Source: Gammaproteobacteria bacterium (GTDB lineage Bacteria; Pseudomonadota; Gammaproteobacteria; CAISUE01). From it: a stretch of 64,000 nucleotides of DNA. Position numbers and translations under genes: made by a program. This document shows positions 13,352-64,000 of this stretch, in pieces. The notes under the pieces were generated by a model. It saw only the letters and a program-made list of their open reading frames with translations. It searched no databases and was not told where the DNA came from. Location of the stretch: NCBI GenBank assembly GCA_021156105.1, contig JAJNBD010000007.1:52945-116944 (forward strand), given 5' to 3'. Position 1 is the first letter of the stretch. The number at the start of each line of letters is the position of its first letter.

Positions 13352-13400
13352 GTTTATTATTTCGCTTTTTGATGAAAGGGGTTAAATTGTTAAAATGAAT

Positions 13401-43731: not shown

Positions 43732-43900
43732 ATTTAAGTTTTATTAGAAATTTAGGACGGCCATTTTATCATTAAGCCAGTTATTTTGCTGTGTGTGTTA
43801 GTTCATGGCAGGTAAACTTTATGTGCAACTTTTATCAAAGCACTAAGGGCACAATAATTGCTTCCTATTCTAAAATACTTTTTAACTTATTGGAGGTATT

Positions 43901-44335
43901 ATGAAAAATTTACATCTTGTATTAGCAGGTAGTTTACTTATCTCTACCAGCATGGCTTATGCAACCGTCCCTTTAGCAGCTATGAATAATAAAATTGGCC
44001 AGTGTCAATTAGGCCAGACCTGCAGTCTACCTCAAAAGACATTAGGCTATCTTGCCGTACCCATTAAAGCCAACAGTCAAAAAGAACACGCCTATGAGTG
44101 TGTTGTTCACTCCACCCAAAATAAACAACTTTATGTTGAAACTTACAGCGATGGAGATCTAACAATGGATCCAGCGGGTCAAGGCACCCTTACCTACGAT
44201 ATAGGTTTATTACGTATGAGAGCAGAGTTCCAAACACCAAACAGTAACGGAGATATTAAAGTCTTGAATGTTTTAGGCACCGGGGGCGCGACAGTGACTT
44301 GCCAGCAAACATTATTGAATCAAAATAAAGCTTGA
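43901..44335 (+). CDS. small secreted hypothetical protein
   Basis: Signal peptide (SMAYA). 4 Cys. SD GGAGG upstream. Confidence 0.45.
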   Translation: MKNLHLVLAGSLLISTSMAYATVPLAAMNNKIGQCQLGQTCSLPQKTLGYLAVPIKANSQKEHAYECVVHSTQNKQLYVETYSDGDLTMDPAGQGTLTYDIGLLRMRAEFQTPNSNGDIKVLNVLGTGGATVTCQQTLLNQNKA

Positions 44336-45000: not shown

Positions 45001-47163
45001 TTAACCAAGACCAGGACGAGAACGGGCACTACCCGGCAACGTTGATCGCGTACTAGTATCAGCAGGCATTGGAATTGCCGCGGCTGCTCTTTGCGCCAAA
45101 AGCCCATTACCACGTTGCATCAGCTGAGCAACACCAGAGGTAGGTTGCTGGCACGCTTCAAAAACAAGCGTTTCGTTATACTTTAGCTCTGGCAACCGTT
45201 CAGGTTGACCTTGGCAATTAATGGTAATTTTTTCCCGACAAAATGGCGAGCCAAAGCCCTTTCGAGAAAACTGCATTTTCATAATAGCTCGCTCTTTAGA
45301 TAAAGAAATTTCCTCTGGATCAAATTTAATAAGCGATTCTTCAGAGTCTGAGCGTGCTGAAAAATTTTGTGTGAAATATAAAGTTAAACTATGACATGAA
45401 TAATCTACTGCAAAAATATGAGTTAAATTTATTTTTAATTTATCTGCCGTAAAAGCTTGGTAGTATTTAGCAATACCCATTAAACCTAATTGGAAGAACG
45501 TAGTTAAATCAAGTTTAAAACGGCTCCTTTGCTCGGACGTCGTTAAAGGTTCTTCAATTTGAGTTAACAACCAAGCCCCCAGCCCTGCCATATTAACTAT
45601 ATCTGAATAAAGCTTAACCAACGGCCCCAAGTTTCTCGGAAAAACGTTCCTGCTTACAACTTCATCAATCGCCATTTCAAGTGCATTATCACGAGACATC
45701 GCAATCCTTTCTTCAAAACTCATACTACAAGCTAGCGGTGTAGATGCAATGTTTGTTAATAAATCTATTAAACGAGTATTTTCTTGAAGCGCGGCTTTCG
45801 TCACCAAACCAGTAAAAGTATATTCTGGGGAAGTAAAAAAATCTTGAGAAACTTGAGTGCTCAATTGAAAAAATCGTTTGAATTTCTCGCACTCCCTAGG
45901 GTCTTTTAATACGCTAATATATGCCTCTTGCAACTTATCTAAAATGGTCGGATCGTATTGAAGGAATTTCTCCACCACCTCAGCCATACTAAATTCTCGT
46001 AGGCCTGTTAAAAAATACCTTAAAAATGTATTTTTTTCTATTAAATTAGAAATCGCAACGGTCTCAAAGTGTTGTAATGAAAAATAATTCTTAGCAAATT
46101 TTTGTAATTCGTCATCATAAAAATTTCCTTTATCTATTTCCTGAATCTTTTCAGACAAGAATTTATAAGCGTTTTCGTCCTTTAAGCCAGCCAATTTTTC
46201 AAGCTCTTCTGCAGAAATAAAATGCCTCAAATAAACTGTATCATCAATATTTTTTTGACCAGGCTTTAAATGTTGAAACTCTGTAAATACCCGCTTCATT
46301 AACCAGAAAGAAGCTTTATTAGGAAACTGCGCCAATCTCAAACGATAAAAAAACTGTAATTTTTGTAAACATTCTTTCGAATCAGAAAAGCGCGCAAAAT
46401 AAGTAATTAACTCTGCCCTAACCTCTTCAAAATCCTTTTGTATCTTACCAAAATCTTCCTGCTTAAGATCATACCTGCTTTTTTTCCCCACAATAAAACA
46501 CTGCGCACTCGCAAAACCTTTGCCAAGCACCGAGCATAATTTGTTTAAACTGCCACAAATTTTTGATAGGGCATTTGAATCAATTTCGACATTATGGAAT
46601 TGCAGATACTGGTTAATAGCGGCAGCCAAGTCAGGGGTACTTTCTTTGACTTGATAATAAAGCTTGGCCAATATTTCGCTTTCATCCTCTGTTAAACACA
46701 TGCATGGTGTCAATAAGCGCTGCAGAAAATCTGGATATGCCAAAATAGCCGCTTGATAATTATTCTCTAAGCGTTGCAAATCTAAAAGAAGATGCGAAAT
46801 AATAGAAGATTGGTTTTTTCCTTGTAAAGCAGTTTTTATTTTCGTCAACAAATCGATTAGAAGATAAAAACCATAATGCTTTATCTGTCTCTCAGTCTTT
46901 GCCTCTTGTGCCTTGGCATTCTCACCATTTCTATACCAAGTTTCATCTACCAAAAAACTTCCGGAAGAAATATTTTTTAACTCAGGACGAGCTTCTAATA
47001 ACTTGCTAATTTTGGCAAATTCATTATTTTTTAAAGCGCTAATCGCGTCTTTAAAATCAGTAGGAAATTTATTAGAGAAAGCTAAATAATATTCGGTATT
47101 GGCATGATAATATAATGCAGCCTTCGCAAATGATTCTATCAACGTAGGATCAGAAAAAGGCAT
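45001..47163 (-). CDS. large hypothetical helical protein (effector candidate)
   Basis: 720 aa, no signal peptide. Ala/Pro/Arg-rich disordered C-terminal 40 aa. Confidence 0.45.
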   Translation of the reverse strand: MPFSDPTLIESFAKAALYYHANTEYYLAFSNKFPTDFKDAISALKNNEFAKISKLLEARPELKNISSGSFLVDETWYRNGENAKAQEAKTERQIKHYGFYLLIDLLTKIKTALQGKNQSSIISHLLLDLQRLENNYQAAILAYPDFLQRLLTPCMCLTEDESEILAKLYYQVKESTPDLAAAINQYLQFHNVEIDSNALSKICGSLNKLCSVLGKGFASAQCFIVGKKSRYDLKQEDFGKIQKDFEEVRAELITYFARFSDSKECLQKLQFFYRLRLAQFPNKASFWLMKRVFTEFQHLKPGQKNIDDTVYLRHFISAEELEKLAGLKDENAYKFLSEKIQEIDKGNFYDDELQKFAKNYFSLQHFETVAISNLIEKNTFLRYFLTGLREFSMAEVVEKFLQYDPTILDKLQEAYISVLKDPRECEKFKRFFQLSTQVSQDFFTSPEYTFTGLVTKAALQENTRLIDLLTNIASTPLACSMSFEERIAMSRDNALEMAIDEVVSRNVFPRNLGPLVKLYSDIVNMAGLGAWLLTQIEEPLTTSEQRSRFKLDLTTFFQLGLMGIAKYYQAFTADKLKINLTHIFAVDYSCHSLTLYFTQNFSARSDSEESLIKFDPEEISLSKERAIMKMQFSRKGFGSPFCREKITINCQGQPERLPELKYNETLVFEACQQPTSGVAQLMQRGNGLLAQRAAAAIPMPADTSTRSTLPGSARSRPGLG

Positions 47164-47323
47164 GGCATACCTCCAGAATAGGCTATTAAGCTAGATAGTT
47201 ATTTTTCTCTTACTCTTAGCAAAAAGCATACCACAAACTTATTAAAATCAAAAATTGGTCATAAAAGCGTATTTTTTAACCTAGCGACACCCTTAGTTAA
47301 TAATCAAACATACTTAATGCTTA

Positions 47324-48844
47324 TTATTTTGCTAGGTGGTAAATCTGAACCTGATCCCCTCGCCTATTAATAAAAACCTTCATTGGTTGATGGCTGCTTA
47401 AAAAGTTTTTTACATTGTCACTAAGTAGATCATCTTTATTAATTCTTAATGCAACCCAATCATAATCTTCAGCTTTAGAAATATCTCTTAATTCGCCATC
47501 TGTAATATTCGCTTGACGCATCTCATCGGCATATTCGTCGCTAGCATAAAAACTGAGCTGGTTACTGGTAGAAAATAAAGTTTGATTTGGCTGCATGTGC
47601 TGATATAGCCAACGCCCACCATTAGAAATATAAGCTTTTGAAACACCAAAATGGCACAAGCCGCTTATTGCCATTCCAAGCAACCATAGCAAAATTATTG
47701 GCCAAAATATTCGTGCCATTTTATGCTGTTGCTGCCAAGCTTGATAAATATTTTCTAGCGCAAAAGGTACCCAGCTCATCCAAAGCAACACCATAAAAAT
47801 CGGATAACGCGCCACGATAAAATACTGCTCTGCAACAAATAAAGCAAGCATGATTAAGTTTACAAAAATCGTCCAATTTAATAAGGTCACTTGTCCATCG
47901 GTATTTTTAATGAGTTTTTGCTGCTGACCAAAGCAAGCTAAAAATAAATATAAAGGTTTAAAAGCAGTAATAATGCCCATAATTAAAACAGCTAATAATC
48001 CGCCATAAAACAAAGTTGGCGCACTATCTTTAGAAAGGTAATTTAATACCGTTGCTTTAATCGTTTGAATATCCGTTTGCATTTTATGCCATGTTGCAGG
48101 CAAAGTTTGGGTTAACTGACTAACTAATTCATATAAACGACTATTTCCTTGCTCTGGAGAATGGTGAATAATGTGGAAAGTAATCATGCCTACCAGTCCA
48201 AGCCATAAACAAAGATTTACTTTAAGATAGCACTTTATTCGCTGACGCCAAAAAACACCTGGCTGAATAAGTAAAACCATTGGAGCTGTTGCTAAAAAGA
48301 CAAATCCCTCCACGCGGAAGAGACTTGCGATAATCATGAACAGTCCCCAAAATAACGCATATTTATAATTAGGCTGTTTTAAATAATTTATTAAAAAAGA
48401 AAAAGCATAAAGCGCAAACGCCCAATAAGCAAAATCACGCGTCACGTAATCACGCATACCATTAAGTGTGGGAAAAATTAAAATTACCAATGCCGACCAG
48501 AGCAGTATCCGCTGCTGAGCACCTAAGATCTTTAATAAACGAATAAAGCCCAGCACGAGCAAAACCTGAAAGATAATATTTAAAAGATGAAAAGCATATA
48601 CCAATTTAATGCTTATTACTTTTGCGACCCAAGCGGCCAGAATAGAAAAGAAAGGCCAGTTATAAGCAACAAATGCAGCCTTTACGCCATGCTGCAAATA
48701 AGCTTGGGCTGTTTTAATATAAACCATGCCGTCCGGATTAATTGGATCATTTGATAAAAGCGCGCTTAAACTAAAAAGCAAACTAAAAATCGCTGCAATC
48801 GTTAGCAGCTTTGGATAGGATAAATTTTGAAAAAAGTTTTTCAT
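47324..48844 (-). CDS. GT-C-fold membrane glycosyltransferase (ArnT/PMT-like)
   Basis: About 11 TM helices. First periplasmic loop with a D/E-rich motif. About 100-aa soluble C-terminal domain. Confidence 0.5.
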   Translation of the reverse strand: MKNFFQNLSYPKLLTIAAIFSLLFSLSALLSNDPINPDGMVYIKTAQAYLQHGVKAAFVAYNWPFFSILAAWVAKVISIKLVYAFHLLNIIFQVLLVLGFIRLLKILGAQQRILLWSALVILIFPTLNGMRDYVTRDFAYWAFALYAFSFLINYLKQPNYKYALFWGLFMIIASLFRVEGFVFLATAPMVLLIQPGVFWRQRIKCYLKVNLCLWLGLVGMITFHIIHHSPEQGNSRLYELVSQLTQTLPATWHKMQTDIQTIKATVLNYLSKDSAPTLFYGGLLAVLIMGIITAFKPLYLFLACFGQQQKLIKNTDGQVTLLNWTIFVNLIMLALFVAEQYFIVARYPIFMVLLWMSWVPFALENIYQAWQQQHKMARIFWPIILLWLLGMAISGLCHFGVSKAYISNGGRWLYQHMQPNQTLFSTSNQLSFYASDEYADEMRQANITDGELRDISKAEDYDWVALRINKDDLLSDNVKNFLSSHQPMKVFINRRGDQVQIYHLAK

Positions 48845-48865: not shown

Positions 48866-49990
48866 TTATTCGCTTACTACGCCCGGCGTTTTTGTTATCA
48901 CTTTTAAAATTTGTTCTGCAATACTTGTTTGGTCTTGTTGCTGCATATAACCACGCGCAGATTTTTGCCAGTGCTCATTAGGTAAGTCAGCCAAGCTTTC
49001 TAGCAAAGCCTGGTTATAAACCCCTTGCTGAAATGGTTGGCCCGAGATCACTTTACCCGCACCCGATTGTCTAACATAGGAGGCATATCCACAAGTGTCC
49101 GTCACCAACACTGGCAAACCATTAGCTAGCGCCTCAGCAATCACTGTACCTGTTGTATCATGATAGGCTGCGTGTAAAAAGATGTCGGAAGCTTGCATTA
49201 AAGTATAAACATCCTTTCGGCTACCTAAAAAGCATACATGCTCAGCGATGCCTAGCTTTTCTGCCATCTTAGCAAAATATGTTTTTCTTTGTTCACCCAC
49301 AACTAAAAAATAAACATCTTCTAGAATATGTTTTGGTAAAGCAGCTAAAGCGCGTAAATCTCTTTCAATTCCTTTTAACTTCAAGTTATGCCCCACCATT
49401 AATAACCACTTTACCTTCTTTTCACAAAAGGAAAGATTTAATTGTAAGCGCGCATCTTCCTTTGCTAGAGGCATATCAGGCAATTTTATACCCGCTGAAA
49501 TACGATGAAATTTTTCATCTTGGGTTTGATAATATTGTTGATAAATGGCCTGCTGGCTTTCATTTAAAAGTAAGATCTGGGTTTTTGCGCAAGGCTCAAA
49601 TATTTGCTTTTCTATCGCAAGATAACTGCGATACCTCGGCAGCCATCGGTAAAGCCAAGGATGTTTTCGCGCCGCCTCTTTACGCAGGCATAAATCACAG
49701 GCGAAATAATAATCTAATCCTGGCAGGCGACTAAAACCAATGCTTACGACTGGATCTTTTGTTAACGCTTGATGTAATAAATAGATAAACTTTTTGACAC
49801 GCTGATGGTTACTGAAAGCTTTTACTGGCAAAAGTTTCACTTCAAGACCCGCAGGAATCTCCCCTTGCCAACTTGTTGTATAGCAAATGACTTCATGCCC
49901 TTGTTGCAGCGCAAGTTGCGAAAACTTCAACATATCGCGCTGCGCGCCACCAAAGGGAAAATATTTAAAAATACATAAAGCGAGCTTCAT
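48866..49990 (-). CDS. GT4 glycosyltransferase, WaaG/RfaG-like LPS core glucosyltransferase
   Basis: N-terminus MKLALCIFKYFPFGGAQRD closely resembles the WaaG N-terminus (from memory). C-terminal EX7E-type region. Confidence 0.65.
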   Translation of the reverse strand: MKLALCIFKYFPFGGAQRDMLKFSQLALQQGHEVICYTTSWQGEIPAGLEVKLLPVKAFSNHQRVKKFIYLLHQALTKDPVVSIGFSRLPGLDYYFACDLCLRKEAARKHPWLYRWLPRYRSYLAIEKQIFEPCAKTQILLLNESQQAIYQQYYQTQDEKFHRISAGIKLPDMPLAKEDARLQLNLSFCEKKVKWLLMVGHNLKLKGIERDLRALAALPKHILEDVYFLVVGEQRKTYFAKMAEKLGIAEHVCFLGSRKDVYTLMQASDIFLHAAYHDTTGTVIAEALANGLPVLVTDTCGYASYVRQSGAGKVISGQPFQQGVYNQALLESLADLPNEHWQKSARGYMQQQDQTSIAEQILKVITKTPGVVSE

Positions 49991-50551: not shown

Positions 50552-51784
50552 ATGAATCCTTCAGACTTGCAACCAGGTGATGTTGTTTTTTTTGTTACTC
50601 CCTGGGGTTATGTTGATCACGTTGGCATTATTAGCGGACGCGATAAGCATGGCTTACCACTGATCATTCACGCCATTGATGATAAACGTTACAACTGTGT
50701 GTTACAGACAACGCTTAATCCTAAAACAATCGTCGATGATGATGGCGTGACGCATGATTTAAAATTTATTGTTGCTCGCTGTAAAGATTCAAGCATTGCC
50801 GCATTAGCAGCGCAACAAGCTATGGTATGGGCGCAATATGCCCCACCCTACAGTCACAATCGTTTAAAAAAATCGCTTGCATTAGAAGATGAATTTGATA
50901 ATGATGACAAACAGATTTGTGAGCGTTCGCAGCAAAAATATCTTGAAGAAAACCGCATATTTGCTAGTATTAAATATACAGCTCGTCGTGATTTACCACC
51001 AGTTAATGCTAAAAAAGGCATTATTTGCAATACTTTCTTTACTCTATGCTATCAAGTACCACAGCTTAGCCCTTATACTAAAACTATTGATGACATAGCT
51101 AGCTGCACCTGGATTTCAGATAAGCATCCTGCAAAAGTGATAATTAATCCTGCAATAGCGCAAGAGTATGAGAAATATATGGACGCCAAAACAAAACGCC
51201 GTATGGCAGCTGGCGTAGCCGAAGCAATAATAACTGATGTTGACCAAGAAGTCATAGCTTTGTGCCAACAAGACTTTCAGTCTTCTGCTGCCGCTTGGGA
51301 TTACAAGGATGGCGTACCACTCCCTAGCGAAATTGCAAGACAACTAGTACTTCCAGTAGATGTTAAAGAAACTCCTTGCGGCGCTTTGAAATATTATATG
51401 GATCATTCTAAAGATTGGACGGTATTTAATGATAACCCATTAGAATTAAAGGCAGTAGTGTTTGAAACGTCAGAAAAATCTGAGTATAAAGAGCAAATTA
51501 CGCGAACACTTGAATTCTCAAAGGCATTGCGTACTCAACATCAGGACATGTTGCTTTCACCTCGCCGCTGCGTTTCAGCTAGTACCATTGAAGTACCAGC
51601 CGGATTAATTGATAGTGATATGAGCGGTTTAAAACGACAAGTGGTATCTGCGCCAGCTTCTCCAAGTGAGTATATTCGCAAATTTTTCCGAGCTATCCCC
51701 TCCGCTTCACCTGTAGCAATTGCTCAATTTTCAACTGAACTAGATAGTGAAGAACAACCTGCAGCCGCAGCAAGTGCGCGATAA
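50552..51784 (+). CDS. hypothetical protein with N-terminal permuted NlpC/P60-like (His-first) domain (effector candidate)
   Basis: PGDVVFF...HVGII...IHA at the extreme N-terminus, with candidate Cys downstream. Long C-terminal region of unknown function. Confidence 0.4.
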   Translation: MNPSDLQPGDVVFFVTPWGYVDHVGIISGRDKHGLPLIIHAIDDKRYNCVLQTTLNPKTIVDDDGVTHDLKFIVARCKDSSIAALAAQQAMVWAQYAPPYSHNRLKKSLALEDEFDNDDKQICERSQQKYLEENRIFASIKYTARRDLPPVNAKKGIICNTFFTLCYQVPQLSPYTKTIDDIASCTWISDKHPAKVIINPAIAQEYEKYMDAKTKRRMAAGVAEAIITDVDQEVIALCQQDFQSSAAAWDYKDGVPLPSEIARQLVLPVDVKETPCGALKYYMDHSKDWTVFNDNPLELKAVVFETSEKSEYKEQITRTLEFSKALRTQHQDMLLSPRRCVSASTIEVPAGLIDSDMSGLKRQVVSAPASPSEYIRKFFRAIPSASPVAIAQFSTELDSEEQPAAAASAR

Positions 51785-52194
51785 GACCATAACATATATG
51801 GAAAAGAGCCATAGATAATAAAAAATTGTTAGAAAAACAAGGACTGATAAAATTAGAAGGGCTACAAGCAGATAATATTATCTCCCTTGTTCGCGTATGG
51901 AGTTATGCGTAGGCAGCAAAAAATATCGCCAACAAGTCTCAACACTCTCGTACAAAAATAAATCCATTATAAGCTGGATATTGCTTAAGCTCCTGATAAA
52001 ACTGCCTTTATTGAAGCAGATGCTGTAGCCCATTGCGGCAATTTTGAGAGCCCCTACTTTTGAATGGGAAGAACGAGAATCCTTTAATTTTCACCCAGTA
52101 CAAAGTTATAGTTTCAAAAAGAAGGCTTTTTTAAGCTTCTGTTAAGCTTTATCTGCTAAAATTTTGCTATAAAAAGAACAATAATAAAAAAAGC

Positions 52195-53361
52195 ATGTCA
52201 TATTTTACAGAACTCTTTGCGTTGGCGAGCATTGCTCACGAGCGCATTACTGCTGAAAAACAAAACCAGCAACCACTTAAAAGCGTTTCACCTGAAGTTA
52301 TCATGAGGACGCTGCATTCATTTAGCTGCGCTATCACAGCCCCTATGCTTGTTGCGACAGCCTTAACTTGTATTATTAATTTGCAGTACTTAAAAAATGG
52401 TATTGGTAAAGAAGGCTTGGAGAAAACGAAAAATCGCTTTGCTAAACTCTATTATATCTTTACAGATGGTTTAGAAAGCAATGTTAAAAGTAGCCTCTCA
52501 AGAAATGGCATTAACATCATACTAAGCCAAACCGCCCGCGAGGAAGAGCTTTCTTCTACCATGATTAAAGAAAAACAACTCGGCGAAAAAATGCTACCCG
52601 CTAAAGGACTTATGCTTCAAACAGGTTTGGCATCTTTTGCCGGTATTACTAGCGCTCTTGTAACTTCACCTTTTACAGCAAATAATGTCTTCCAAAAAAT
52701 GAATCCTGCGTTTGGTAAATTAAAGTTTATCGAGCAAATACAGGCTTCAAAATCAGCATTCTGGGTACGAGCTCTTGATAGCCAGCTTAATGCCATCGCT
52801 TTTATGACGTTAGCCCCTTATCTAAAAAGCCTTTTACAGCAGCACTGTTTTTTATCTGACTTCACAGCAGATACGGCGGGTTCTGCTTTAGCAGGCGGCA
52901 TTGCAGGATTATTAACCACCCCAACATATAACCTTGCACGCGGCGTAATGTCTCAAACTAAGGCAATAAGAACGGTAGAAGATAAGGTTATTTTTGAGAT
53001 GAACAGTACTTATAAAATATTAAAAGACGAATATCTACGAGGAAAGAGAAAATTTTTTAGTGGTGCTGTGGCCAACGTTTGTAAAGGTAGCCTAGCTTTG
53101 CCTTTAATCATTTTGGCCGATAAAGGCTTAGATTTTGTTATCTTTAAGCACTTATTTCCCATGATGGAAGCAAATCAAACGAAGCAACCGCTGCTTGAAG
53201 TGACACCAGAAGATACGATGCGTTCTGAAACAAAAGAAAAAACTGAAAAATCATCTCAGCTTCTGGGTCAGATTAGTGGCTTATTCTCAGTTAAACCATT
53301 ATCAACCCAAGAAGCTGATTATCTGCAACATACTTTGTATACAACACATTTTGATTTCTAA
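52195..53361 (+). CDS. hypothetical membrane protein, weakly mitochondrial-carrier-like
   Basis: Repeated G-x-x-A-G-x-x-A...P-x-x-x-x-x-R/K...Q patterns (AGGIAGLLTTPTYNLARGVMSQ). Degenerate. Confidence 0.3.
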   Translation: MSYFTELFALASIAHERITAEKQNQQPLKSVSPEVIMRTLHSFSCAITAPMLVATALTCIINLQYLKNGIGKEGLEKTKNRFAKLYYIFTDGLESNVKSSLSRNGINIILSQTAREEELSSTMIKEKQLGEKMLPAKGLMLQTGLASFAGITSALVTSPFTANNVFQKMNPAFGKLKFIEQIQASKSAFWVRALDSQLNAIAFMTLAPYLKSLLQQHCFLSDFTADTAGSALAGGIAGLLTTPTYNLARGVMSQTKAIRTVEDKVIFEMNSTYKILKDEYLRGKRKFFSGAVANVCKGSLALPLIILADKGLDFVIFKHLFPMMEANQTKQPLLEVTPEDTMRSETKEKTEKSSQLLGQISGLFSVKPLSTQEADYLQHTLYTTHFDF

Positions 53362-54216: not shown

Positions 54217-55962
54217 ATGCGCACTTCAAACTTTTTTCTTGCAACTTTACGTGAAACACCTAGCGATGCTGACACTATCAGCCAACAGCTTATGCTGCGT
54301 GCCGGCTTAATCCGCAAACTTGCTTCTGGATTATATACCTGGCTACCCTTAGGCTTCCGTGTGCTGAAAAAAGTTGAACAAATCGTGCGGGAAGAGATGA
54401 ATGCCGCAGGCGCACAAGAGGTACTAATGCCCGCTGTACAACCAGCAGAATTATGGCAAGAATCTGGTCGTTGGGATCAATATGGTGCAGAATTATTACG
54501 CATTATTGATCGCCATGATCGCGCTTTTTGTTTTGGTCCAACGCATGAAGAAATTATTACTGATTTAGCACGCGGTGAGTTATCCAGCTACAAACAACTG
54601 CCTATCACTTTTTATCAAATTCAAACTAAATTCCGTGATGAGATACGTCCACGCTTTGGCGTCATGCGTGCGCGCGAATTCACCATGAAAGATGCTTATT
54701 CTTTTAATCTTGACCAAGATTCATTAGCCAAAACCTATCAAACTATGTATGACGCCTATAACAAAATTTTCAAGCGTCTTGGTTTGAAGTTTCGTGCTGT
54801 TGAAGCTGATACGGGCAGTATTGGTGGCAGTCGCTCTCATGAGTTTCAAGTATTAGCTCAATCCGGTGAAGATTTAATTTTTTATTCCAATGGTAGCGAT
54901 TATGCTGCTAACGTAGAACTTGCAACCACTATACCCTCCGCTAAACAAACACCTAGCGGCAAAGCTTGTGAAAAAATTGCAACACCTGAGCAAAAAACTA
55001 TTGCAGAAGTTAGTGAATTTTTAAAAGTATCGCCTGAGCGTACCGTTAAATGCGTGTTAGTGAAAGGCATGAAGGAACCTGTCATTGCCTTAGTGTTACG
55101 TGGTGATCATGAATTAAATGAAGTAAAAGCTACCAAGCTTGCTGAAGTTGTTAACCCTCTTACCATGGCAGACGCTAGTGATATTAGCAAAGCCTGTGGC
55201 TCAGAAGCCGGTTTTATTGGCCCGATTAATTCAAAAATTCCTTTCTTTGTCGATGCAGATGCAGCCAACTTAGCTGACTTTGTCTGCGGCGCAAATGAAA
55301 CAGGCTTCCATCTTATTAACGCTAATTGGCAAAACCTATCTGCCGATCAAATTAAGGATCTACGCAAAGTAGTGGTTGGCGATAAAAGCCCTGATGGCCA
55401 TGGCACACTTGAATCTGCACGAGGCATTGAAGTTGGCCATATTTTCCAGCTTGGCACTAAGTATTCTGCTGCGTTAAAAATGACTGTATTAAATGAAAAT
55501 GGTAAAGCCGTAACACCTCTGATGGGTTGTTATGGCATTGGTGTATCGCGTGTAATCGCAGCAGCTATCGAACAAAATCATGATGACAAAGGTATTATCT
55601 GGCCAAGCAGCATGGCGCCTTTCCAAGTGGCTTTAATCGGCATCAATATGCATCGATCCGAAGCCGTACAACTTAGAACGCAAGCTATTTATGAAACATT
55701 AACTGCTGCTGGTTTTGAAGTCCTTTGGGACGACCGCAATGAACGTCCAGGTGTGATGTTCGCCGACATGGAGCTTATTGGAATTCCACATCGTATTGTT
55801 GTCAGCGAAAAATTGCTTGCTGACAATTATGTCGAATATAAAAACCGCGCTACTGGCGAACAAGAAACCACTTCTTTTGAAGAAGTTCTGAAAAAATTAA
55901 AAACCCAAGGAAGAGAACATAGCAATGATGCTAACAAATCCAAAACAGTCGCTGCAAATTGA
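54217..55962 (+). CDS. proS: proline--tRNA ligase (bacterial type with editing insertion)
   Basis: Class II motifs. 581 aa with an INS editing domain. Typical N-terminus [15 protein letters not shown]. Confidence 0.95.
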
Positions 55963-57949
55963 TGCTTTCACTAGCAAAGAATGGTTAGAAACGAATGAAA
56001 CTGGCAGTTATGCTTCAAGTAGCTTAGTAGAATGCCACACACGTAAGTATCATGGCTTACTGGTGGCTAAACTACAAGCGCCTTATGGCAAATTTGTTTT
56101 GCTTTCAAAATTTGACGAGCAAGTATTGATTAACGACAGCTATATTCCTTTAAGCGTTAGTCAGTATTTAAATGCTTTAGATGCTCGCGGCTTTACAAAT
56201 TTTAACTGCTTTGATCTAGCAGCGAATCCTTGTTTCCGCTATGTTTGTAATGGATTAGAAATAACCAAAGAGTTACTTTTCTTAAATAGCAAAAACACTT
56301 TGCTAATCAAATATCGCATTCAACAACCAAATACAAACGCTAAACTGCTTTTGCGTCCGCTGCTAGCCTATCGTTCTTACCACGCACTCGCCAAAGCAAA
56401 TACAAATATTTGCAGCACAGCAACACTTTTAGAAAATGGCGTAACGTTTTCTCCCTACGAGGAAATGCCTAAGCTACGCCTATATGCCAACGGCCCCTTC
56501 AGTTTTAATGCTCAGCCCTACTGGTATTATGATTTTGCTTACCTTGAAGAAAAAGCGCGTGGTTATGATTACACGGAAGATTTATTTTCGCCAGGAAGTA
56601 TTGAGCTTAGCTTTGGTGAACAACAAGAAATTATTTTAGCTTGCTCCATTGAAGACGATCTTGAAACTGATTTAGCAAAACTATGGCACGATGAAATCGC
56701 GCGCCGGCAAGCTTTTGCCAAACAAGCTACGGCAAAAGAAGCGTCTTTGTGGCAACAGATTAAGCATCATCTTGGTTTCCGTGATCGCACCGCTAACCTT
56801 TTAGCCATCTTAAAACAACAGGCTTCACCTCAACTATTTGTTAATCCTAATAGCAACAATGCCGCTATCGTCGCAGGCTTCCACTGGTTCACAGAATGGG
56901 GCCGAGACACTATGATATCGCTACCTGGACTAACACTTTATTCAGGTTTAGAAAAAGTCTGCCTACAAATTCTTAGCTATTTTGCTAGCCATGAATATCA
57001 AGGCATTATCCCAAACCGTATCGCACCATTAGCAACTGACTCAGATGAACTCGATGCTGTTGATGCAAGCCTATGGTTTTGCTGGGCAGTGCAACAGTAC
57101 TACAGCAAAACAAAAGATTTAACCGGTATTCAAAAAAATCTTTGGCAAACCTTAAAAAACATTGTGTATTACTATCGCAAAGGAACGCTATTTAACATTA
57201 AACAAGCGGCAAATGGTTTAATTTATGCTGGCAGTCCAGAAATTAAACTTACCTGGATGGATGTTAAAATTAATAACCTTGCTTTAACGCCACGCAATGG
57301 TGCACCAGTAGAAGTCAACGCCTTATGGTATAACGCGCTTTGCTTTATTAATCAGTTAGCTGAAGCATTGCAAGATCCCATTGCCAAAGAACTTGCGCCA
57401 CTTATTCCCCAAGTGAAAAAAAGTTTTGTAGAAGTATTTTGGAATGCTCAATCTGACTGCCTGTATGATTTTGTGAATGAACATGAATCAAACGCACAAA
57501 TTCGTCCCAACCAAATTTTTGCGGTTTCTCTGCCTTATTCCCCGCTAGAGCTTAAGATGGCCCAAGCTGTGACAAATACCGTGCGTCAGCACTTGCTAAC
57601 CCCCTATGGTTTACGCACACTATCACCGCAAGACCCAGCTTACCATGCTGCTTATGAAGGCGACCAAACACAGCGCGATACAGCCTATCATAATGGCACT
57701 GCTTGGCCATGGCTGCTTGCTGCTTTTGGAGAAGCCTTATTAAAAACCCAAGGCTTGCTTGCTCGGCAAAGAGCCCGTAAAATTCTACAACCTTGCTTAC
57801 AAGCACTGTGGCAACACGTAACGGCACAAGCAGGTTTGGCTTGTGTTTCTGAAATTTTTGATGGTTCTGCGCCTTACAATGCACGCGGATGTATACAGCA
57901 GGCGTGGAGCGTAGGTGAACTCATTAGATTAATACAAATATTGCAATGA
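55925..57949 (+). CDS. glycogen-debranching-enzyme-like (amylo-alpha-1,6-glucosidase, GDE_N+GDE_C)
   Basis: N-terminal [28 protein letters not shown] (GDE_N). C-terminal (alpha/alpha)6 barrel motifs. Overlaps the proS end. Confidence 0.7.
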
Positions 57950-59139
57950 AAATTTTAATGTATGGCTGGGAATTTCCACCCTTGATCAGCGGAGGCTTAG
58001 GCGTTGCCTGCTATGGCATCGTGCAAAGCTTGCTAGCGGCAGGAGCAGAAGTTGAATTAGCCTTGCCTACGATTAGTGACCACCTTTTCACAAACGAGCA
58101 CCTCCACTATTTAAATGTGCTAGATGCAGACGTAGCTGGAGGACCAACACCACAGCCATTGTTACAACCTTATTTAAATGCTAACCAATATCTGTCGTTA
58201 AAAGAAAAACAGGTGCATGCAGCGCTTTATGGAAAGGATCTTTGGGAAGAAGTTCATCGCTATGCTGAAACTGCAGGAAAATTAGCACTGAATACACCTC
58301 ACGATATTATTCACGCACATGATTGGTTAACAATTTTAGCAGGTATGAAAGCTAAACAAATTAGCAATAAACCACTGGTATTTCATGTCCATGCTTTAGA
58401 AGTCGACCGCTGCCCACAGCATATTTATCAAGCGGTATTTGATATTGAAAAACTAGGCTTAGAAGCAGCAGATAGGATTATTGCCGTCAGCCAATACACT
58501 AAAAATATTATTATCGAAAAATACGGTATTGCCGCTGAAAAGATTTCCGTGGTCTACAATGGTCTTTTGACAACAGCAAAGAAATTACTAACCCCAAAAG
58601 CACAAAAGGATTATTTTACGGTGTTATTTTTAGGACGGCTTACTGAGCAAAAAGGCCCCTATTATTTTATTAAAGCGGCTGAAAAAGTTCTCTCTGTTCG
58701 TCAAGACGTTGAATTTGTCCTTGCTGGTGATGGAGATCAGCTGCCTGCGCTAATGCAGGAAACCGCACGTTTAGATATTTCTCAGCATATTCATTTCACC
58801 GGTTTTTTAGCTCCGCATGATGTTGGAAAAATTTATCAACTCAGCGATATCTATGTCATGCCCAGCGTTTCTGAACCTTTTGGCATCTCTTGCTTAGAAG
58901 CAGCTTCTTATCAATTACCAGTCATTATCTCTAAACAATCTGGCGTTTCTGAAGTACTAAGCCATGCATTAAAAGTAGACTACTGGGATACTGATAAACT
59001 TGCAGCATGCATTTTAGCTTTGTTGGAATATCCAGCGCTAAAAAAAGAAATGCTTATGCACTCTCATAAACAGCTCGCTAAACTCACATGGGATGAAGCT
59101 GCCAAAAATATTATTTCTGTTTATAACTCGCTTGCCTGA
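57946..59139 (+). CDS. GT4 glycosyltransferase, glycogen(alpha-glucan) synthase-like
   Basis: N-terminus [25 protein letters not shown]-terminal E-x7-E region. ATGA overlap with the upstream gene. Confidence 0.65.
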   Translation: MKILMYGWEFPPLISGGLGVACYGIVQSLLAAGAEVELALPTISDHLFTNEHLHYLNVLDADVAGGPTPQPLLQPYLNANQYLSLKEKQVHAALYGKDLWEEVHRYAETAGKLALNTPHDIIHAHDWLTILAGMKAKQISNKPLVFHVHALEVDRCPQHIYQAVFDIEKLGLEAADRIIAVSQYTKNIIIEKYGIAAEKISVVYNGLLTTAKKLLTPKAQKDYFTVLFLGRLTEQKGPYYFIKAAEKVLSVRQDVEFVLAGDGDQLPALMQETARLDISQHIHFTGFLAPHDVGKIYQLSDIYVMPSVSEPFGISCLEAASYQLPVIISKQSGVSEVLSHALKVDYWDTDKLAACILALLEYPALKKEMLMHSHKQLAKLTWDEAAKNIISVYNSLA

Positions 59140-59148
59140 GGAACTATC

Positions 59149-60330
59149 ATGCCATCTGTGTGTTTTTATTTTCAAGTACACCAGCCATTACGTTTAAGAC
59201 CCTATACTTTTTTTGATATTGGTCACCAAAGCCATTATGAAGACGATGCGCTTAATCAAGAAATTTTGTTAAAAGTCGCTAATAAGTGTTATTTACCCAC
59301 AAATGCACTCATTTTAAAACTTATTCAGCAAACCCAAGGCAGATTTAAAGTTGCTTATTCTATTAGCGGTGTAACTATTGAGCAATTTAAAAAATATAGT
59401 CCAGAAACACTAGACTCTTTCAAGCGCCTTGCGGATACTGGCTGCGTTGAAATGCTCAATGAAACGTATTACCACAGTTTAAGTTTTTTATTTTCACCAA
59501 AAGAATTTTTAGCTCAAGTACAGTTACATCGAGAATTAATTCAACAAGAGTTTGGCCAAACACCAACAACATTTCGCAACACTGAATTAATTTACAATAA
59601 TGACTTAGCGAAATTCGTTGAATCCTTAGGTTATCGCACTATCTTAGCTGAAGGCGCAGAAAAAATTCTTAACGGCCGTAGTCCAAACTTCGTTTATCAA
59701 GCACAAGGATGTAAACAATTAAAATTATTATTACGTAATTATCCCCTGTCAGATGATATCGCTTTCCGCTTTTCTAATATTGACTGGGAAGAACACCCAT
59801 TAACTGCAGAAAAGTTTTCGCATTGGGTTCACCAAACTGCGGGCAATGGTGAAGTGGTTAATCTTTTCATGGATTATGAAACTTTTGGTGAGCATCAATG
59901 GGAAGATAAAGGCATTTTTCAATTCCTTGCTGCTTTACCAAATAAAATTTTATCTCACGATGATTTTGATTTTTGCACTCCCCAGGAAGCAACCGCAAGA
60001 TATCCTTCTCATGGAATACTCGACGTACCTAACTTTTGCTCATGGGCAGATATCGATAGGGACCTCACCGCTTGGCGAGGTAATGAATTACAAGAGAGCG
60101 CTTTAAAGAACATCTATGAACTAGAAGCAGCGGTACACGCCCAGCAAGACGAAGCTTTGCTAAAAAAATGGCGGTCATTATTGACCTCCGACCACTTCTA
60201 TTATATGTGCACAAAATGGTGCGCAGATGGGGATGTTCATAAATACTTTAGCCATTATGACAACCCCTACGCTGCTTACATCAACTTTCAAAATGCCGCA
60301 AAAGATTTGCGTTTACGCTGCAGCCAATAG
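59149..60330 (+). CDS. glycoside hydrolase family 57 (branching-enzyme/alpha-amylase-like)
   Basis: CFYFQVHQP N-terminal motif and ETYYHS, typical of GH57. Confidence 0.7.
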   Translation: MPSVCFYFQVHQPLRLRPYTFFDIGHQSHYEDDALNQEILLKVANKCYLPTNALILKLIQQTQGRFKVAYSISGVTIEQFKKYSPETLDSFKRLADTGCVEMLNETYYHSLSFLFSPKEFLAQVQLHRELIQQEFGQTPTTFRNTELIYNNDLAKFVESLGYRTILAEGAEKILNGRSPNFVYQAQGCKQLKLLLRNYPLSDDIAFRFSNIDWEEHPLTAEKFSHWVHQTAGNGEVVNLFMDYETFGEHQWEDKGIFQFLAALPNKILSHDDFDFCTPQEATARYPSHGILDVPNFCSWADIDRDLTAWRGNELQESALKNIYELEAAVHAQQDEALLKKWRSLLTSDHFYYMCTKWCADGDVHKYFSHYDNPYAAYINFQNAAKDLRLRCSQ

Positions 60331-61767
60331 TTTTACTGTTTCTGCCCGAAGACGCACAGCAGTTAACAAAGTTGCATAACTCCAGGACAAATCCTGGGCG
60401 CTTATTTGCTTGCCGGACGCACGATCAATTTGCTCCGACATATGCAATGCACTGCCATCTTTATACGTTACGCTGCAAGCTTTTATCACTTGCAAAATAT
60501 CATCACCCTGAGTAACGAGTGTTTCAATTAATGCCTTAAAGCATGGTGAAGCTTTGCTAAGCTTATCTCCAATCGCAATATCAATTGCAGGCGCTACCTG
60601 TTGCAAAAATTGTTTTACCAAAAAGCTAACCGAAATACTATTTCCTTCGAGTAGTTGTTGAGCAAGACCATAATAGAAAGCCGCCAACATATTTGTACAC
60701 AAAAACCAGGAGTTGCCATAGATTGAATGGTTGCCATCGTAAACATCAGAACAGTATCTACCTACCAGAGAGCCACCAATACCAAGCGCTTTATTTCGAG
60801 TATTAATTTGATAAAGCCCTTCAAATGCATAGCGGGCATAATAGGCTGTGCTTATAACCTCTTCCGAGGTTAGAGCAAAATCATCATTCGCTTGCTTAAT
60901 TTGGCCATACAGTAAAGCAATAAGCACTGAAGTATTAATTCCACCGCCGCGCTGGTCTTGTGCCGCTAATGTTTCAGAAAAGTAACCCAGGCTATCATTC
61001 CAATGCATATTTAAAGCATTACCAATATGCTGCGCTTGTGTTTGATAATAGCTAGTCGCACCTGTATCACCTAACTGTGTGGCCAAAGCCGCGCCTTCCA
61101 ACAAAGCTCGTCGCTGTACAATTTGCACAGAGAAATGCAGACCAAATAATTCTTCCCAAGGTCCAATCGTATTTGCTTGCCAATTAGCCGCCGTATATTC
61201 TAAATTTGCTTTTAATATACTAGCAAAACTTTGAGGGTTATAAATGTTATCGATAACAAATTGTTTATTACCTTCTTGTAAAAAAATATTGGCAATATGG
61301 GTTAATGTCAGCGCTTGGTAAGCTGCACCATCATTTTGTGGTCTTGACCAAACTCCCGTCCAAAGCGTACCGTCTACATTAAACTTCGGTTCGCCTAAAA
61401 TATCAATGCTATTTAATTCAGGCTGCGATTGAACTTTTTTAACAAAATTCAAATAACAGAGTAAAATTTCTTTAAACTTATTTTTCTCTTGCGGATCTGT
61501 AGCAGTTTTATATAATACCGCAATTTCATTTATGACAATTGCACCATCTCTTACCCAGTAAAAAAAATAATCTTGGCTAAAGGTATTTCCCGGAAGCGAT
61601 GGCGAAGCAATTACGGCGCCTGGCATTGCTTCAATCGTAGCGCCAGTCGTTACTTTTGTTAACGCATGACTAGGTGTTGCAATATTATTTAGTAAATTAT
61701 TTTTAATGGCGTTAATATCTTCTGGCGTAAAAGGACAATTCTTTATAGTCATAGCATTAAACCCCAT
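60313..61767 (-). CDS. glycoside hydrolase family 15 (glucoamylase/glucodextranase-like), cytoplasmic
   Basis: (alpha/alpha)6 GH15 motifs (WVRDGA, GPWEE, WFLCT). No signal peptide. TAATG coupling with the upstream gene. Confidence 0.75.
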   Translation of the reverse strand: MGFNAMTIKNCPFTPEDINAIKNNLLNNIATPSHALTKVTTGATIEAMPGAVIASPSLPGNTFSQDYFFYWVRDGAIVINEIAVLYKTATDPQEKNKFKEILLCYLNFVKKVQSQPELNSIDILGEPKFNVDGTLWTGVWSRPQNDGAAYQALTLTHIANIFLQEGNKQFVIDNIYNPQSFASILKANLEYTAANWQANTIGPWEELFGLHFSVQIVQRRALLEGAALATQLGDTGATSYYQTQAQHIGNALNMHWNDSLGYFSETLAAQDQRGGGINTSVLIALLYGQIKQANDDFALTSEEVISTAYYARYAFEGLYQINTRNKALGIGGSLVGRYCSDVYDGNHSIYGNSWFLCTNMLAAFYYGLAQQLLEGNSISVSFLVKQFLQQVAPAIDIAIGDKLSKASPCFKALIETLVTQGDDILQVIKACSVTYKDGSALHMSEQIDRASGKQISAQDLSWSYATLLTAVRLRAETVKLLAAA

Positions 61768-62891
61768 TAAGAAATTTTTAAAACATTTTTGAAATTGTCA
61801 TTCGCTTGAAACAATAAGGTTTCATATTGCTCCATTGGAAACCTAACAATCAAAGTCTGCATCAACGCTGGCCACTTAGCTAAAAAATCGCCTAAATCAT
61901 CGATTGCTTTTTGATAATCCGCTTTAGCAGCATTCACCGTACCCACAAGCGCTTGGTTTTTTAGCACGAGATTACGCATAATGTCACCCACTGGCTCTGA
62001 CGCAACCACATCTGCTCGTGAAACACCTGTAAAAGCAAAGATACCATTAATACCTAAAACATCTACCATTTCAAAAGAGATTTTTGCGCCACCGGTTGCT
62101 TCAAAAACATAATCAACATTGCCGAGCATTGCGGCAAATTCAGGTATTGTTTTATCTTGGGCAGATACATAATGCGTGCCGATTGTTTTTGCAATATTGG
62201 CATGAGGAGAGTTTTCAGCTTCTAAAGAATAAACAAAAGTATTGAAACCCGCGTTAACAAAAACCATTGCGCCCAGTAAACCAACAGGCCCTGCGCCTAA
62301 GATAGCGGCACGATTATAATTTGCCAGCTTGCCAATATTGGCGCCTTGCCCTTGCGCAGAGTTTGTCCAAGGAAAGCGACTAGCGATAGGACATACCTGA
62401 CTCATGGCTTTTTCTGCAATTGTTAATGGCTCGGTAAGCACAGCAATCGGTAGTAATGCTTGTGGCGCAGGCAACATATAGCATTCTTCATCCACCACAA
62501 ATTCTGTCATAAAGCCATGCAGCCCTTTAATACCTCGCTCTTTGTAATCGCCGGTATAACAAAAATCTTGACGGCCTGATCGGCAAGCGATGCAATCGCT
62601 ATGATCACATGGCCGGCGAACCATCGTTACCACTAAATCACCAGGCTTAAATTTTGTAACGCCCGCCCCTACTTCAATAACTTGCCCCAGAGATTCATGG
62701 CCAAGAACAAGATAATCCGACCCCTCAGGCGGCGTTCCATAAGCAAAGCTACAAATTTCACGATCGGTACCGCAAATACCTACTTCAATAATTTTTAACT
62801 TCACTTGATTTGGTGAAGTAATTTGTGGTTCTGGATGGTTATCAATCAGCGTAACCCGTCGCTCTTTAGGAAAAACTGCTATCGCTTTCAT
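61767..62891 (-). CDS. zinc-dependent MDR-family dehydrogenase, glucose-1-dehydrogenase-like
   Basis: GICGTDREI and GHESLGQV zinc-binding motifs. Rossmann GxGxxG (GAGPVG). Confidence 0.7.
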   Translation of the reverse strand: MKAIAVFPKERRVTLIDNHPEPQITSPNQVKLKIIEVGICGTDREICSFAYGTPPEGSDYLVLGHESLGQVIEVGAGVTKFKPGDLVVTMVRRPCDHSDCIACRSGRQDFCYTGDYKERGIKGLHGFMTEFVVDEECYMLPAPQALLPIAVLTEPLTIAEKAMSQVCPIASRFPWTNSAQGQGANIGKLANYNRAAILGAGPVGLLGAMVFVNAGFNTFVYSLEAENSPHANIAKTIGTHYVSAQDKTIPEFAAMLGNVDYVFEATGGAKISFEMVDVLGINGIFAFTGVSRADVVASEPVGDIMRNLVLKNQALVGTVNAAKADYQKAIDDLGDFLAKWPALMQTLIVRFPMEQYETLLFQANDNFKNVLKIS

Positions 62892-62928: not shown

Positions 62929-63921
62929 CTATTCTTCGCGATGTACAATCGTATTTGGGTCAAGACCATTAAAATAGTATTGCCCAACACGCCCTCGATA
63001 CCGCTCATCTTCTGAAACTTGAGAATGTCCATAAGCATGCCCACCAAAACCATGACGAATCATGCTAATGGCTTTCGCCCAATTTTTCTTTTCATCGCGG
63101 CTATTAATAAGTTGCATAACAGCCATTGCAATAACCGGTGTAGGAACTTCCATATGCATCGCATCATCCACTAACCAGTTGACTTCACCTGTGTCATCAA
63201 CATAACTATCAATTTTTTCTAAGCCATCATTTTGTCGGTAAGCCGCGGCCATTAATTCAATTAGCCAACCTCGGATAACTGAACCACGCGTATAAACATC
63301 CAGTGTTGCTTGAATATTTAATTTTAATGGACATGCTTCTAATAAAGCCATGCCCTCACCAATTGCTTCGAGCATACCATATTCAATACCATTATGAACA
63401 AGTTTTACAAAATGGCCCGCACCAGGAGGCCCCGCATGTACATAACCACCACTTACAGATAAAGATGTTAAGATCGGTTCGATAATTGCAGACTCTTCCG
63501 GCGTTCCCCCCAGCATAAAACAAGCACCTGACTCGGCACCTGAGATGCCACCACTCGTTCCCAAATCCACAAAATGGATGCCTTTTTCTAAATATTTTTT
63601 ATGCCGACGAATAGAATCACCCCAATAAGAGTTTCCACCATCAACAATGACGTCGCCATCTTCTAAAATTTCACTTAATTTATCGGCACAGTCATCAACA
63701 GCGTGACCTGCAGGAATATAAATGAAAATCACTCGGGGACGCGCAAGATTCGCAACAAAGCCTTGGTAGTCTTGAACTTGAATTAAACCTTTGCCTAACA
63801 AGTCTGCACTTGCTGGATGAAAATCATATCCCGCAACTTTCATTCCTTTCGCTAACGCTTGTGCTGCAAGATTTCCACCCATGCGTCCTAAACCAATTAC
63901 ACCAAATTGTAGCTGTGACAT
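62929..63921 (-). CDS. 6-phosphogluconate dehydrogenase, short decarboxylating (GndA/YqeC-like) form
   Basis: GVIGLGRMGGNLA Rossmann motif. IVDGGNS and GxGHFVKLVHNGIEYG catalytic region. Start set to ATG with AAGGAG SD, since the track start is further upstream. Confidence 0.75.
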   Translation of the reverse strand: MSQLQFGVIGLGRMGGNLAAQALAKGMKVAGYDFHPASADLLGKGLIQVQDYQGFVANLARPRVIFIYIPAGHAVDDCADKLSEILEDGDVIVDGGNSYWGDSIRRHKKYLEKGIHFVDLGTSGGISGAESGACFMLGGTPEESAIIEPILTSLSVSGGYVHAGPPGAGHFVKLVHNGIEYGMLEAIGEGMALLEACPLKLNIQATLDVYTRGSVIRGWLIELMAAAYRQNDGLEKIDSYVDDTGEVNWLVDDAMHMEVPTPVIAMAVMQLINSRDEKKNWAKAISMIRHGFGGHAYGHSQVSEDERYRGRVGQYYFNGLDPNTIVHREE

Positions 63922-64000
63922 ATTTTCATTCTCCTTAAATAATTTAATAGCTATAGCAAGGTTCTGGCAATCCTTGAACATCATCAATATAAACGGCAAA

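Follow-up and report, generated by a model that had tools for sequence, protein, structure and literature searches.

At the distal end of a 64-kb stretch of DNA from an uncultured gammaproteobacterium (contig JAJNBD010000007.1; the whole stretch is referred to below as the window), three tightly packed genes behind proS converge with a second gene set on the opposite strand. With a probability of roughly two in three, both sets together form an island of two operons whose products synthesise, degrade and oxidise a glycogen-like alpha-glucan inside the cell, with an archaeal-type enzyme set in place of GlgC, GlgA, GlgB and GlgP. The forward genes encode a GH133-type 'archaeal' glycogen debranching enzyme (GDE), a glycosyltransferase (GT) and a minimal GH57 protein of the 'alpha-amylase' (AAMY) subfamily; the reverse genes encode a GH15 glucoamylase, a glucose dehydrogenase, a 6-phosphogluconate dehydrogenase (6PGDH) and a gluconolactonase. 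This view is based on enzymes with intact catalytic residues, the tight packing of their genes, the absence of export signals from the four glucan enzymes and the recurrent co-location of these genes in other genomes.

In the proposed pathway GT would extend alpha-1,4 chains from NDP-glucose produced elsewhere in the genome, and the small GH57 would work with it as a chain-cleaving transglycosylase or amylase, in branching, chain transfer or priming. GH57 would thereby supply branch points or fresh chain ends, and in its absence the polymer would fail to accumulate, as seen when amyA is deleted in Sulfolobus. The stand-alone GH133 enzyme would take off alpha-1,6-linked glucose stubs, and the cytoplasmic GH15 would free glucose from the polymer. 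Glucose dehydrogenase and gluconolactonase would then oxidise this glucose to gluconate, which would be phosphorylated by a kinase encoded elsewhere, and 6PGDH would convert the 6-phosphogluconate to ribulose-5-phosphate with a gain of reducing power.

Arrangement of the genes

Open reading frames (ORFs) and their translations were mapped over the 64-kb window and the junctions were read directly from the DNA letters. The sequence-only reading from which this study started had placed proS (54217..55962), GDE (55925..57949, 674 aa), GT (57946..59139, 397 aa) and GH57 (59149..60330, 393 aa) on the forward strand, and all four were found there. Its call of a proS/GDE overlap and an ATGA junction is borne out as well. 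The GDE start codon ATG lies at 55925 and the proS stop codon TGA at 55960-55962, giving an overlap of 38 nt, and the ATGA shared by GDE and GT is located at 57946-57949. The gap before GH57, given there as 10 bp, comprises 9 nt between the GT stop codon at 59137-59139 and the GH57 ATG at 59149. A Shine-Dalgarno-like AAGGAAGAG at 55908..55916 on the forward strand, 9 nt 5' of the GDE ATG and within the proS coding sequence, is a candidate ribosome-binding site for GDE, judged from the letters themselves.

The gene proS encodes a proline-tRNA ligase (NF006625, 836 bits) and is mentioned as context only. Its last approximately 15 codons form a tail that overlaps the GDE start; the window shares it with a 91% identical sibling alone, and ProS relatives of 561-570 aa have no such C-terminal tail, which looks like a by-product of the GDE junction. 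In the closest relatives (76-77% GH57 identity) the operon GDE-GT-GH57 exhibits identical overlaps with no proS in front. Because these relatives keep the tight operon without proS, the packing reflects a conserved operon and not chance.

GH57 and GH15 (60313..61767, reverse strand) are convergent and overlap by 18 nt at 60313-60330, compared to 15 nt in the 91% sibling (L004 7366-7380), and therefore there is no intergenic room for terminators. A weak terminator-like hairpin on the forward strand at 60381..60398, about 50 nt 3' of the GH57 stop codon, lies in the 3' end of GH15. Terminator-like sites in the region numbered 14 against a shuffled expectation of 10.8, which is not above chance. 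At the overlap, transcription of the synthesis side and of the degradation side could collide or yield antisense RNA; in L089, a relative, these gene sets point away from each other. One may speculate that the convergent overlap lets both transcription units interfere with each other.

The debranching enzyme

GDE matched GDE_N with 221 bits and GDE_C with 360 bits, and it passed the model of archaeal-type debranching enzymes (TIGR01561, gde_arch) with 406 bits at a cutoff of 364. Against the eukaryotic bifunctional model TIGR01531 it reached 76 bits at a cutoff of 1399, with an alignment restricted to the C-terminal region. Because this score is so far under the cutoff, we regard GDE as the amylo-alpha-1,6-glucosidase half only, without a 4-alpha-glucanotransferase domain; it lacks the N-terminal GH13-like domain and is thus not a eukaryotic bifunctional debranching enzyme.

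The residues D328 (WGRD) and D446 (WMD) align with D1078 and D1241 of the Candida glabrata enzyme, whose glucosidase residues proven by mutagenesis are those aligned with the catalytic set of GDE. E643 (SEIFDG) aligns with the conserved Glu of the PELT motif of mammalian GDE and, by homology, presumably occupies the position of E1492. Architecture, score and the Asp/Asp/Glu set all identify GDE as a member of GH133/TIGR01561.

The glycosyltransferase

Matches to the Pfam domains Glycos_transf_1, Glyco_transf_4 and Glyco_transf_5 mark GT as a hybrid of GT4 and GT5. The GT1/GT4 domains and the pair E310-x7-E318 are those of a retaining GT-B enzyme of GT4-like type, and the motifs HAHDW (123-127) and GRLTEQKG (230-237) are present, too. 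The best NCBIfam model was glgA_Coryne (TIGR02149) with 133 bits at a cutoff of 302. With 89 bits at a cutoff of 328, GT resembles the GT5 GlgA family (TIGR02095) and is not a member of it. When the PDB was searched with the single sequence, the top match was the glycogen synthase of Pyrococcus abyssi over the full length (E 7e-20). A family profile built from 20 sequences scored 126 bits for GlgM, 102 for the P. abyssi glycogen synthase, 91 for MshA and 76 for BshA. The top folds matched by the AF2 model of GT (pLDDT 89) were MshA, BshA, the P. abyssi glycogen synthase and GlgM. These match about equally, so the fold leaves the acceptor unsettled. Lipopolysaccharide (LPS) transferases rank below the alpha-1,4-glucosyl transferases GlgM, P. 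abyssi glycogen synthase and glgA_Coryne. From these sequence comparisons we propose that GT is an NDP-glucose alpha-1,4-glucan synthase.

The main rival explanation, which we consider unlikely, starts from the same scores. In a route resembling GlgM and GlgE, GT would combine NDP-glucose with glucose-1-phosphate into maltose-1-phosphate or a different small activated alpha-glucoside, and GH57 as a retaining transglycosylase would polymerise or transfer it, replacing GlgE. GlgM is the top solved structure by the family profile (126 bits compared to 102 for the P. abyssi enzyme), and glgA_Coryne, the best NCBIfam match, is a family we take to be of GlgM type. Furthermore, the near-obligate pairing of GT and GH57 described below would suit a two-step polymerase, and the GlgM question has been raised for a GT4 enzyme of Picrophilus (PMC11046441). 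However, 133 bits are far under the cutoff of 302, and by this score GT is not a member of the GlgM/glgA_Coryne family TIGR02149. Its N-terminal acceptor domain matches the starch-synthase model over the whole length; the P. abyssi glycogen synthase aligns over residues 1-394, GlgM only from about residue 120. Moreover, no GH57 enzyme is known to use maltose-1-phosphate.

A second, unrelated GT4 gene (374 aa, 48866-49990, reverse strand) is located about 6 kb upstream of the operon, parted from it by orphan genes; its product has no starch-synthase domain match.

The GH57 protein

GH57 matched Glyco_hydro_57 with 266 bits and contains the five conserved sequence regions (CSRs) of the family: QVHQP (9-13), GCVEML (98-103), RNTELI (143-148), FMDYETFGEH (240-249) and LLTSDHFYY (344-352). 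The nucleophile E146 in CSR-3 and the proton donor D242 in CSR-4 were invariant in 20 homologues. A PDB search with the single sequence gave no match and a profile search gave only marginal GH57 matches (E 0.05-0.1), so that structure prediction and Foldseek were used. The top Foldseek matches of the AF2 model (pLDDT 85) were all GH57 structures, namely 4-alpha-glucanotransferase, amylopullulanases and branching enzymes, with TMq 0.66-0.74 and 13-16% identity. The five CSRs, the catalytic Glu and Asp and the fold matches place the protein in the CAZy family GH57.

The AAMY subfamily is distinguished by Gln or Glu at position 1 of CSR-1, Arg or Glu instead of Trp at position 1 of CSR-3, two Tyr ending CSR-5 and a complete catalytic pair (PMC6037648). 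By motif reading, GH57 exhibits this fingerprint with Q in CSR-1, R in CSR-3 and YY ending CSR-5. The fingerprint of GH57 branching enzymes, as Xiang 2021 is cited in PMC11206854, is HxHLP (x = A, S or T) in CSR-I and ELF(Y)GHW in CSR-IV. In the window protein CSR-IV reads ETFGEHQW, resembling ELFGHW but with two extra residues, and the 393 aa compare with a mean of about 546 aa for the branching-enzyme (GBE) subfamily. A canonical branching enzyme was therefore rejected as a candidate, the HxHLP and ELFGHW motifs being absent.

We propose that GH57 is an obligate partner of the synthase. More tentatively, at odds that we would put clearly below even, GT and the small GH57 may constitute a minimal two-enzyme glycogen-building machine shared among many bacteria, bacteria of the candidate phyla radiation, and DPANN and methanogenic archaea. 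For organisms lacking GlgB, the GH57 AAMY subfamily would in this case provide the branching enzyme that has long been sought, or else an enzyme essential for chain transfer or priming.

Conservation of the gene pair and its neighbourhood

Apart from a 95% identical sibling, the top 120 of 8000 GH57 matches form a clade with 62-77% identity. GH57 is 55-65% identical to proteins of Woesearchaeota, Nanoarchaeota, Methanosarcinales, candidate-phyla-radiation bacteria and many bacterial phyla. We surveyed the neighbourhood of the GH57 homologue in 80 genome loci sampled across bacteria (Planctomycetota, Bacteroidota, Desulfobacterota, Verrucomicrobiota, Spirochaetota, Fibrobacterota and Patescibacteria) and archaea (Woesearchaeota, Nanoarchaeota and Methanosarcinales). 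A homologue of GT was detected directly upstream of GH57 on the same strand in 68 of the 80 loci, separated from it by a median of about 36 nt, and six of the 12 remaining loci have too little upstream sequence to judge. A GDE homologue was found within 10 kb of GH57 in 30 of the 80 loci.

The association extends to the convergent genes. The gammaproteobacterial relative L089 has all seven genes, arranged in two operons that diverge, L091 has GH57 followed at some distance by MFS-GDH-GH15-GT (GDH, glucose dehydrogenase), and L088 shows the order GH57-SemiSWEET-GH15-GT. In L093 (10001-19049) the order is GH57-tal-gnd-zwf-pgl-glucokinase-GH15-GT. Because relatives keep these genes together in reshuffled order, the glucan genes appear tied to the oxidation of glucose and to the pentose-phosphate route. 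A complete set for the oxidative pentose-phosphate pathway (transaldolase, 6PGDH, Zwf, Pgl and a ROK glucokinase) lies between GH57 and GH15-GT in L093; compared with this locus, the window has glucose dehydrogenase and lactonase in place of the phosphorylating steps.

In a relative with 76% ProS identity (L085 389-3104) proS is followed directly by FUSC-bamB-TPR_21-hisS, genes which in the sibling (L004 1270-13890) come after the approximately 10-kb glycogen and glucose-oxidation block. Since proS is joined to FUSC-bamB-TPR_21-hisS in L085, the block behaves as a presence/absence unit at the proS site. Neither an integrase or mobility gene at the block nor a GC anomaly over the island was detected, and the 64 kb are free of tRNA genes and of Rfam families that reach the gathering score. 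In the absence of such a tRNA or Rfam feature and of a GC anomaly, nothing marks a recent mobile insertion.

The convergent operon and its probable role in glucose oxidation

The sequence-only reading had drawn the unit from 55925 to 60330. This describes the three forward genes correctly, but the system runs on into the convergent operon of GH15, glucose dehydrogenase, 6PGDH and lactonase. The GH15 protein (Glyco_hydro_15, 197 bits) comprises the catalytic domain only and is of fungal type. Its top PDB match was 27xj, a glucan 1,4-alpha-glucosidase of 438 aa (E 8e-54), with fungal glucoamylases well behind (E 1e-41); 27xj is a recent deposition. The bacterial type with an N-terminal domain was not among the PDB matches of this protein. 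The catalytic motifs WEE (204-206), with the glutamate acting as general acid, and SEQID (444-448), with that acting as general base, are present, in agreement with a glucoamylase.

The next gene (61767..62891, reverse strand) encodes an archaeal-type glucose 1-dehydrogenase of the MDR type (medium-chain dehydrogenase/reductase; Glu_dehyd_C, 133 bits). Its top PDB matches 2cd9 (E 2e-44), 2b5w and 3wic, all deposited as glucose dehydrogenases, have E-values some 30 orders of magnitude lower than any alcohol dehydrogenase. We take these three to be the archaeal enzymes of Sulfolobus, Haloferax and Thermoplasma. The decarboxylating 6PGDH (62929..63999, reverse strand) is of the short, gnd-related type and exceeded the cutoffs of both NF007161 (349 bits) and TIGR00872 (305 bits). 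The match begins at residue 31, and translation probably starts at the ATG near 63921. The SGL gluconolactonase (282 bits) is encoded just past the window end on the same contig (L001 14796-15668).

Predicted location of the glucan and remaining alternatives

Signal peptides and membrane segments are absent from all four glucan enzymes, GDE, GT, GH57 and GH15, whereas the neighbouring DsbA-like protein, used as a control, was clearly positive for export. The polymer is therefore expected to be internal and not capsular.

This location also bears on a purely catabolic explanation, which we regard as quite unlikely. GH57, GH133 and GH15 would in this case digest imported starch, malto-oligosaccharides or host glycogen, and GT would serve an unrelated glycoconjugate. 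GH57 proteins of similar size are routinely annotated as starch-degrading alpha-amylases, sugar transporters adjoin the cluster in L089, L091 and L088, and the GH15 enzyme GamA of Legionella pneumophila degrades glycogen. Lacking signal peptides, the enzymes cannot reach external polymers, however, and the island in the window has no transporter. GT is translationally coupled between GDE and GH57 and adjoins GH57 in most of the surveyed loci, as described above. In addition, the Sulfolobus GH57 mutant loses glycogen and does not gain it.

The product might alternatively be a small alpha-glucoside or oligosaccharide, such as a compatible solute or an oligomer resembling methylglucose lipopolysaccharide (cf. 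Rv3030-Rv3032), an explanation to which we give very little credence. The GT4 family includes sucrose-phosphate, MshA-type and other small-acceptor enzymes that are structurally as close to GT as glycogen synthases are, the GDE_C region weakly matches models of mannosylglycerate hydrolase and invertase, and the earlier analogy of GT4 plus GH57 points in the same direction. These weak matches reach 38 bits (MGH1) and 21 bits (GH100), compared to 360 bits for GDE_C, and no methyltransferase, acyltransferase or phosphatase gene is located in or beside the operon. A polymer would account for the presence of a glucoamylase and an endo-acting GH57.

The sequence-only reading had left the choice between a glycogen-like storage and a capsular glucan. 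Storage agrees with our results; a secreted or capsular glucan was rejected as barely credible, since the island contains no signal peptides, membrane segments or export genes, and nothing beyond that initial suggestion speaks for it.

Comparison with known glycogen systems

Sulfolobus acidocaldarius has a glg cluster, saci_1197-1201, comprising glgX (GH133), gaa (GH15), glgC, amyA (GH57) and glgA (Lee et al. 2021, PMC8158581). There, amyA and glgA are co-transcribed and deletion of either abolishes glycogen, while glgX and gaa act in degradation (PMC8158581, PMC11046441); recombinant AmyA could not be produced (PMC8158581). At the level of enzyme classes both clusters have GH133, GH15, a GH57 'alpha-amylase' and an NDP-glucose glucan synthase in common, neither has a GH13 or GH57 branching enzyme or a phosphorylase, and both consist of two units. 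In the window, GH57, GT, GH133 and GH15 are co-located and glgC is absent. The clusters differ in that the synthase of S. acidocaldarius is a GT5 GlgA and that of the window a GT4/GT5 hybrid of 397 aa. GDE is grouped with the synthase in the window, whereas the GH133 gene of S. acidocaldarius is grouped with the glucoamylase. The S. acidocaldarius cluster includes glgC, unlike that of the window. The order is GT then GH57 here and amyA then glgA there. Furthermore, the window adds the module of glucose dehydrogenase, lactonase and 6PGDH, and its host is a mesophilic gammaproteobacterium.

Also similar are a GT4-GH133-GH57 (amylase) cluster of Picrophilus torridus, which like the window has these three side by side, and a GT4 gene beside GH57 in Methanoculleus bourgensis (Chem Rev 2024, PMC11046441). 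In the same review the suspicion is voiced that GT4 acts as a so far uncharacterised glycogen synthase, a function in need of clarification, and the GH57 'alpha-amylase' type is suggested as the possible missing branching enzyme of archaea without GlgB. These clusters are archaeal and known from annotation only, whereas that of the window is bacterial and adds GH15 and the glucose-oxidation genes. The sole characterised member of the GH57 alpha-amylase subfamily is AmyA of Methanocaldococcus jannaschii (Martinovicova and Janecek 2018, PMC6037648). With 393 aa the window protein is near the subfamily mean of 414 aa; it is bacterial, and its clade is 55-77% identical across bacteria and archaea.

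The presumed product, a branched alpha-1,4/1,6 glucan as a reserve of carbon and energy, is the same as that of the classical GlgC-GlgA-GlgB-GlgX-GlgP system. However, the window contains none of the classical Glg families, and degradation would be hydrolytic to free glucose, whereas it is phosphorolytic in the classical system. The absence of glgA-, glgB- and glgC-type genes had already been noted and was confirmed: neither NTP_transferase (GlgC/GalU type) nor GH13/CBM48, GT35 or a phosphoglucomutase family was found in window ORFs of at least 120 aa. In mycobacteria, the GT4 alpha-1,4-glucosyltransferase Rv3032, which produces an alpha-glucan inside the cell, is encoded beside the GH57 protein Rv3031. 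With about 520 aa, Rv3031 belongs to the branching-enzyme type of GH57, and methyltransferase genes for methylglucose lipopolysaccharide are part of its locus. No such genes accompany the operon of the window, and because its GH57 fits the AAMY subfamily and not the branching-enzyme type, the comparison with Rv3031/Rv3032 drawn in the sequence-only reading is valid as an analogy only.

Several observations weigh against the proposed glycogen island. Within the 64-kb window there is no nucleotide-sugar pyrophosphorylase, no phosphoglucomutase and no gluconate kinase. GT stays under the curated cutoffs of both glgA models, it has no Lys in the KxGGL motif (replaced, ISGGLG), the fold comparison fails to part glycogen synthase and GlgM from MshA and BshA, and its acceptor is inferred. 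GH57 lacks the branching-enzyme fingerprints, with QVHQP as CSR-I, and it is likened to Sulfolobus AmyA at the level of the family. To our knowledge, no bacterial member of the GT family or of the GH57 subfamily has been characterised. Promoter and terminator scans of the region gave predictions at chance level, so that the operon boundaries are drawn from gene spacing alone.

On the other side, the debranching-like, GT4-like and GH57 assignments made at the outset agree with the Pfam and NCBIfam scores, and the idea of a non-classical alpha-glucan gene set is upheld by fitting families with intact catalytic residues. A grouping of GT with LPS transferases and a loss of catalytic residues had been named beforehand as arguments against it; LPS transferases scored lower and the residues are in place. 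The judgement that such a pathway is unexpected was overstated: GT-GH57 pairs are widespread, the families are tied to glycogen in Sulfolobus (PMC8158581), and this type of cluster has been discussed (PMC11046441). The window is a further bacterial example of a known, little-studied type of glycogen system and not a new kind.

Host affinity and other features of the window

The contig stems from JGI metagenomes (3300045996, contig Ga0456371_00000444). The description of the host as Legionella-like is unproven. ProS is 91% identical to that of a sibling species of the same metagenome and 76% and 73% identical to those of two further genomes, and thus at most 76% to other lineages. The named matches, all at about 65%, belong to Thioploca and Chromatiales-type Gammaproteobacteria, with no Legionella among the few named top matches and no Dot/Icm genes within the window.

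Several other genes were recorded. An ankyrin-repeat protein of 224 aa (21955-22629, reverse strand) represents a eukaryote-like domain typical of host-associated bacteria, and the relative L089 also has an ankyrin protein near the cluster. Directly past the lactonase gene (L001 16085-21182) lies a gene for a protein of more than 2559 aa that carries SpvB, TcdB_toxin_midN and RHS/YD-shell domains and resembles insecticidal toxin complexes (Tc). Unusually many window ORFs, several of them with 400-720 aa, have no Pfam match at E 1e-5 (regions 3666-5306, 8868-10235, 12707-14873, 18906-19805, 30333-30962, 37773-39530, 42487-44335, 45001-48844 and 50552-53361), and they may be lineage-specific effectors or surface proteins. 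The ankyrin protein, the many orphan ORFs and the Tc-toxin-like gene hint at a host-associated lifestyle.

A 377-aa protein (20033-21166, forward strand) combines a periplasmic solute-binding domain with Lig_chan and Lig_chan-Glu_bd and looks like a bacterial glutamate-receptor-like channel. The PheT ORF (14887-16953, reverse strand) encodes 688 aa with a B3_4 domain from residue 108, and no N-terminal tRNA-binding domain was detected in it; bacterial PheT usually has about 790 aa.

Implications

Glycogen is stored by many archaea and bacteria in which no branching enzyme can be recognised, and what GT4 does beside GH57 is acknowledged as an open question (PMC11046441). What gives the present locus its value is how broadly and tightly GT and GH57 are paired. 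Because both genes stand side by side in distant lineages, with 55-77% GH57 identity, we argue that these GH57 'amylases' are partners of a synthase. The locus shows the module in a gammaproteobacterium, hard-wired to glucose oxidation, and the pair would offer a mesophilic, expressible model for the question of the 'missing branching enzyme'. Loss of the classical glgPACXB operon is inferred to have preceded the common ancestor of Legionellales (PMC8896642). If the placement of the host is confirmed, the locus would mean that glycogen storage in Legionellales-type organisms can persist by a different route.

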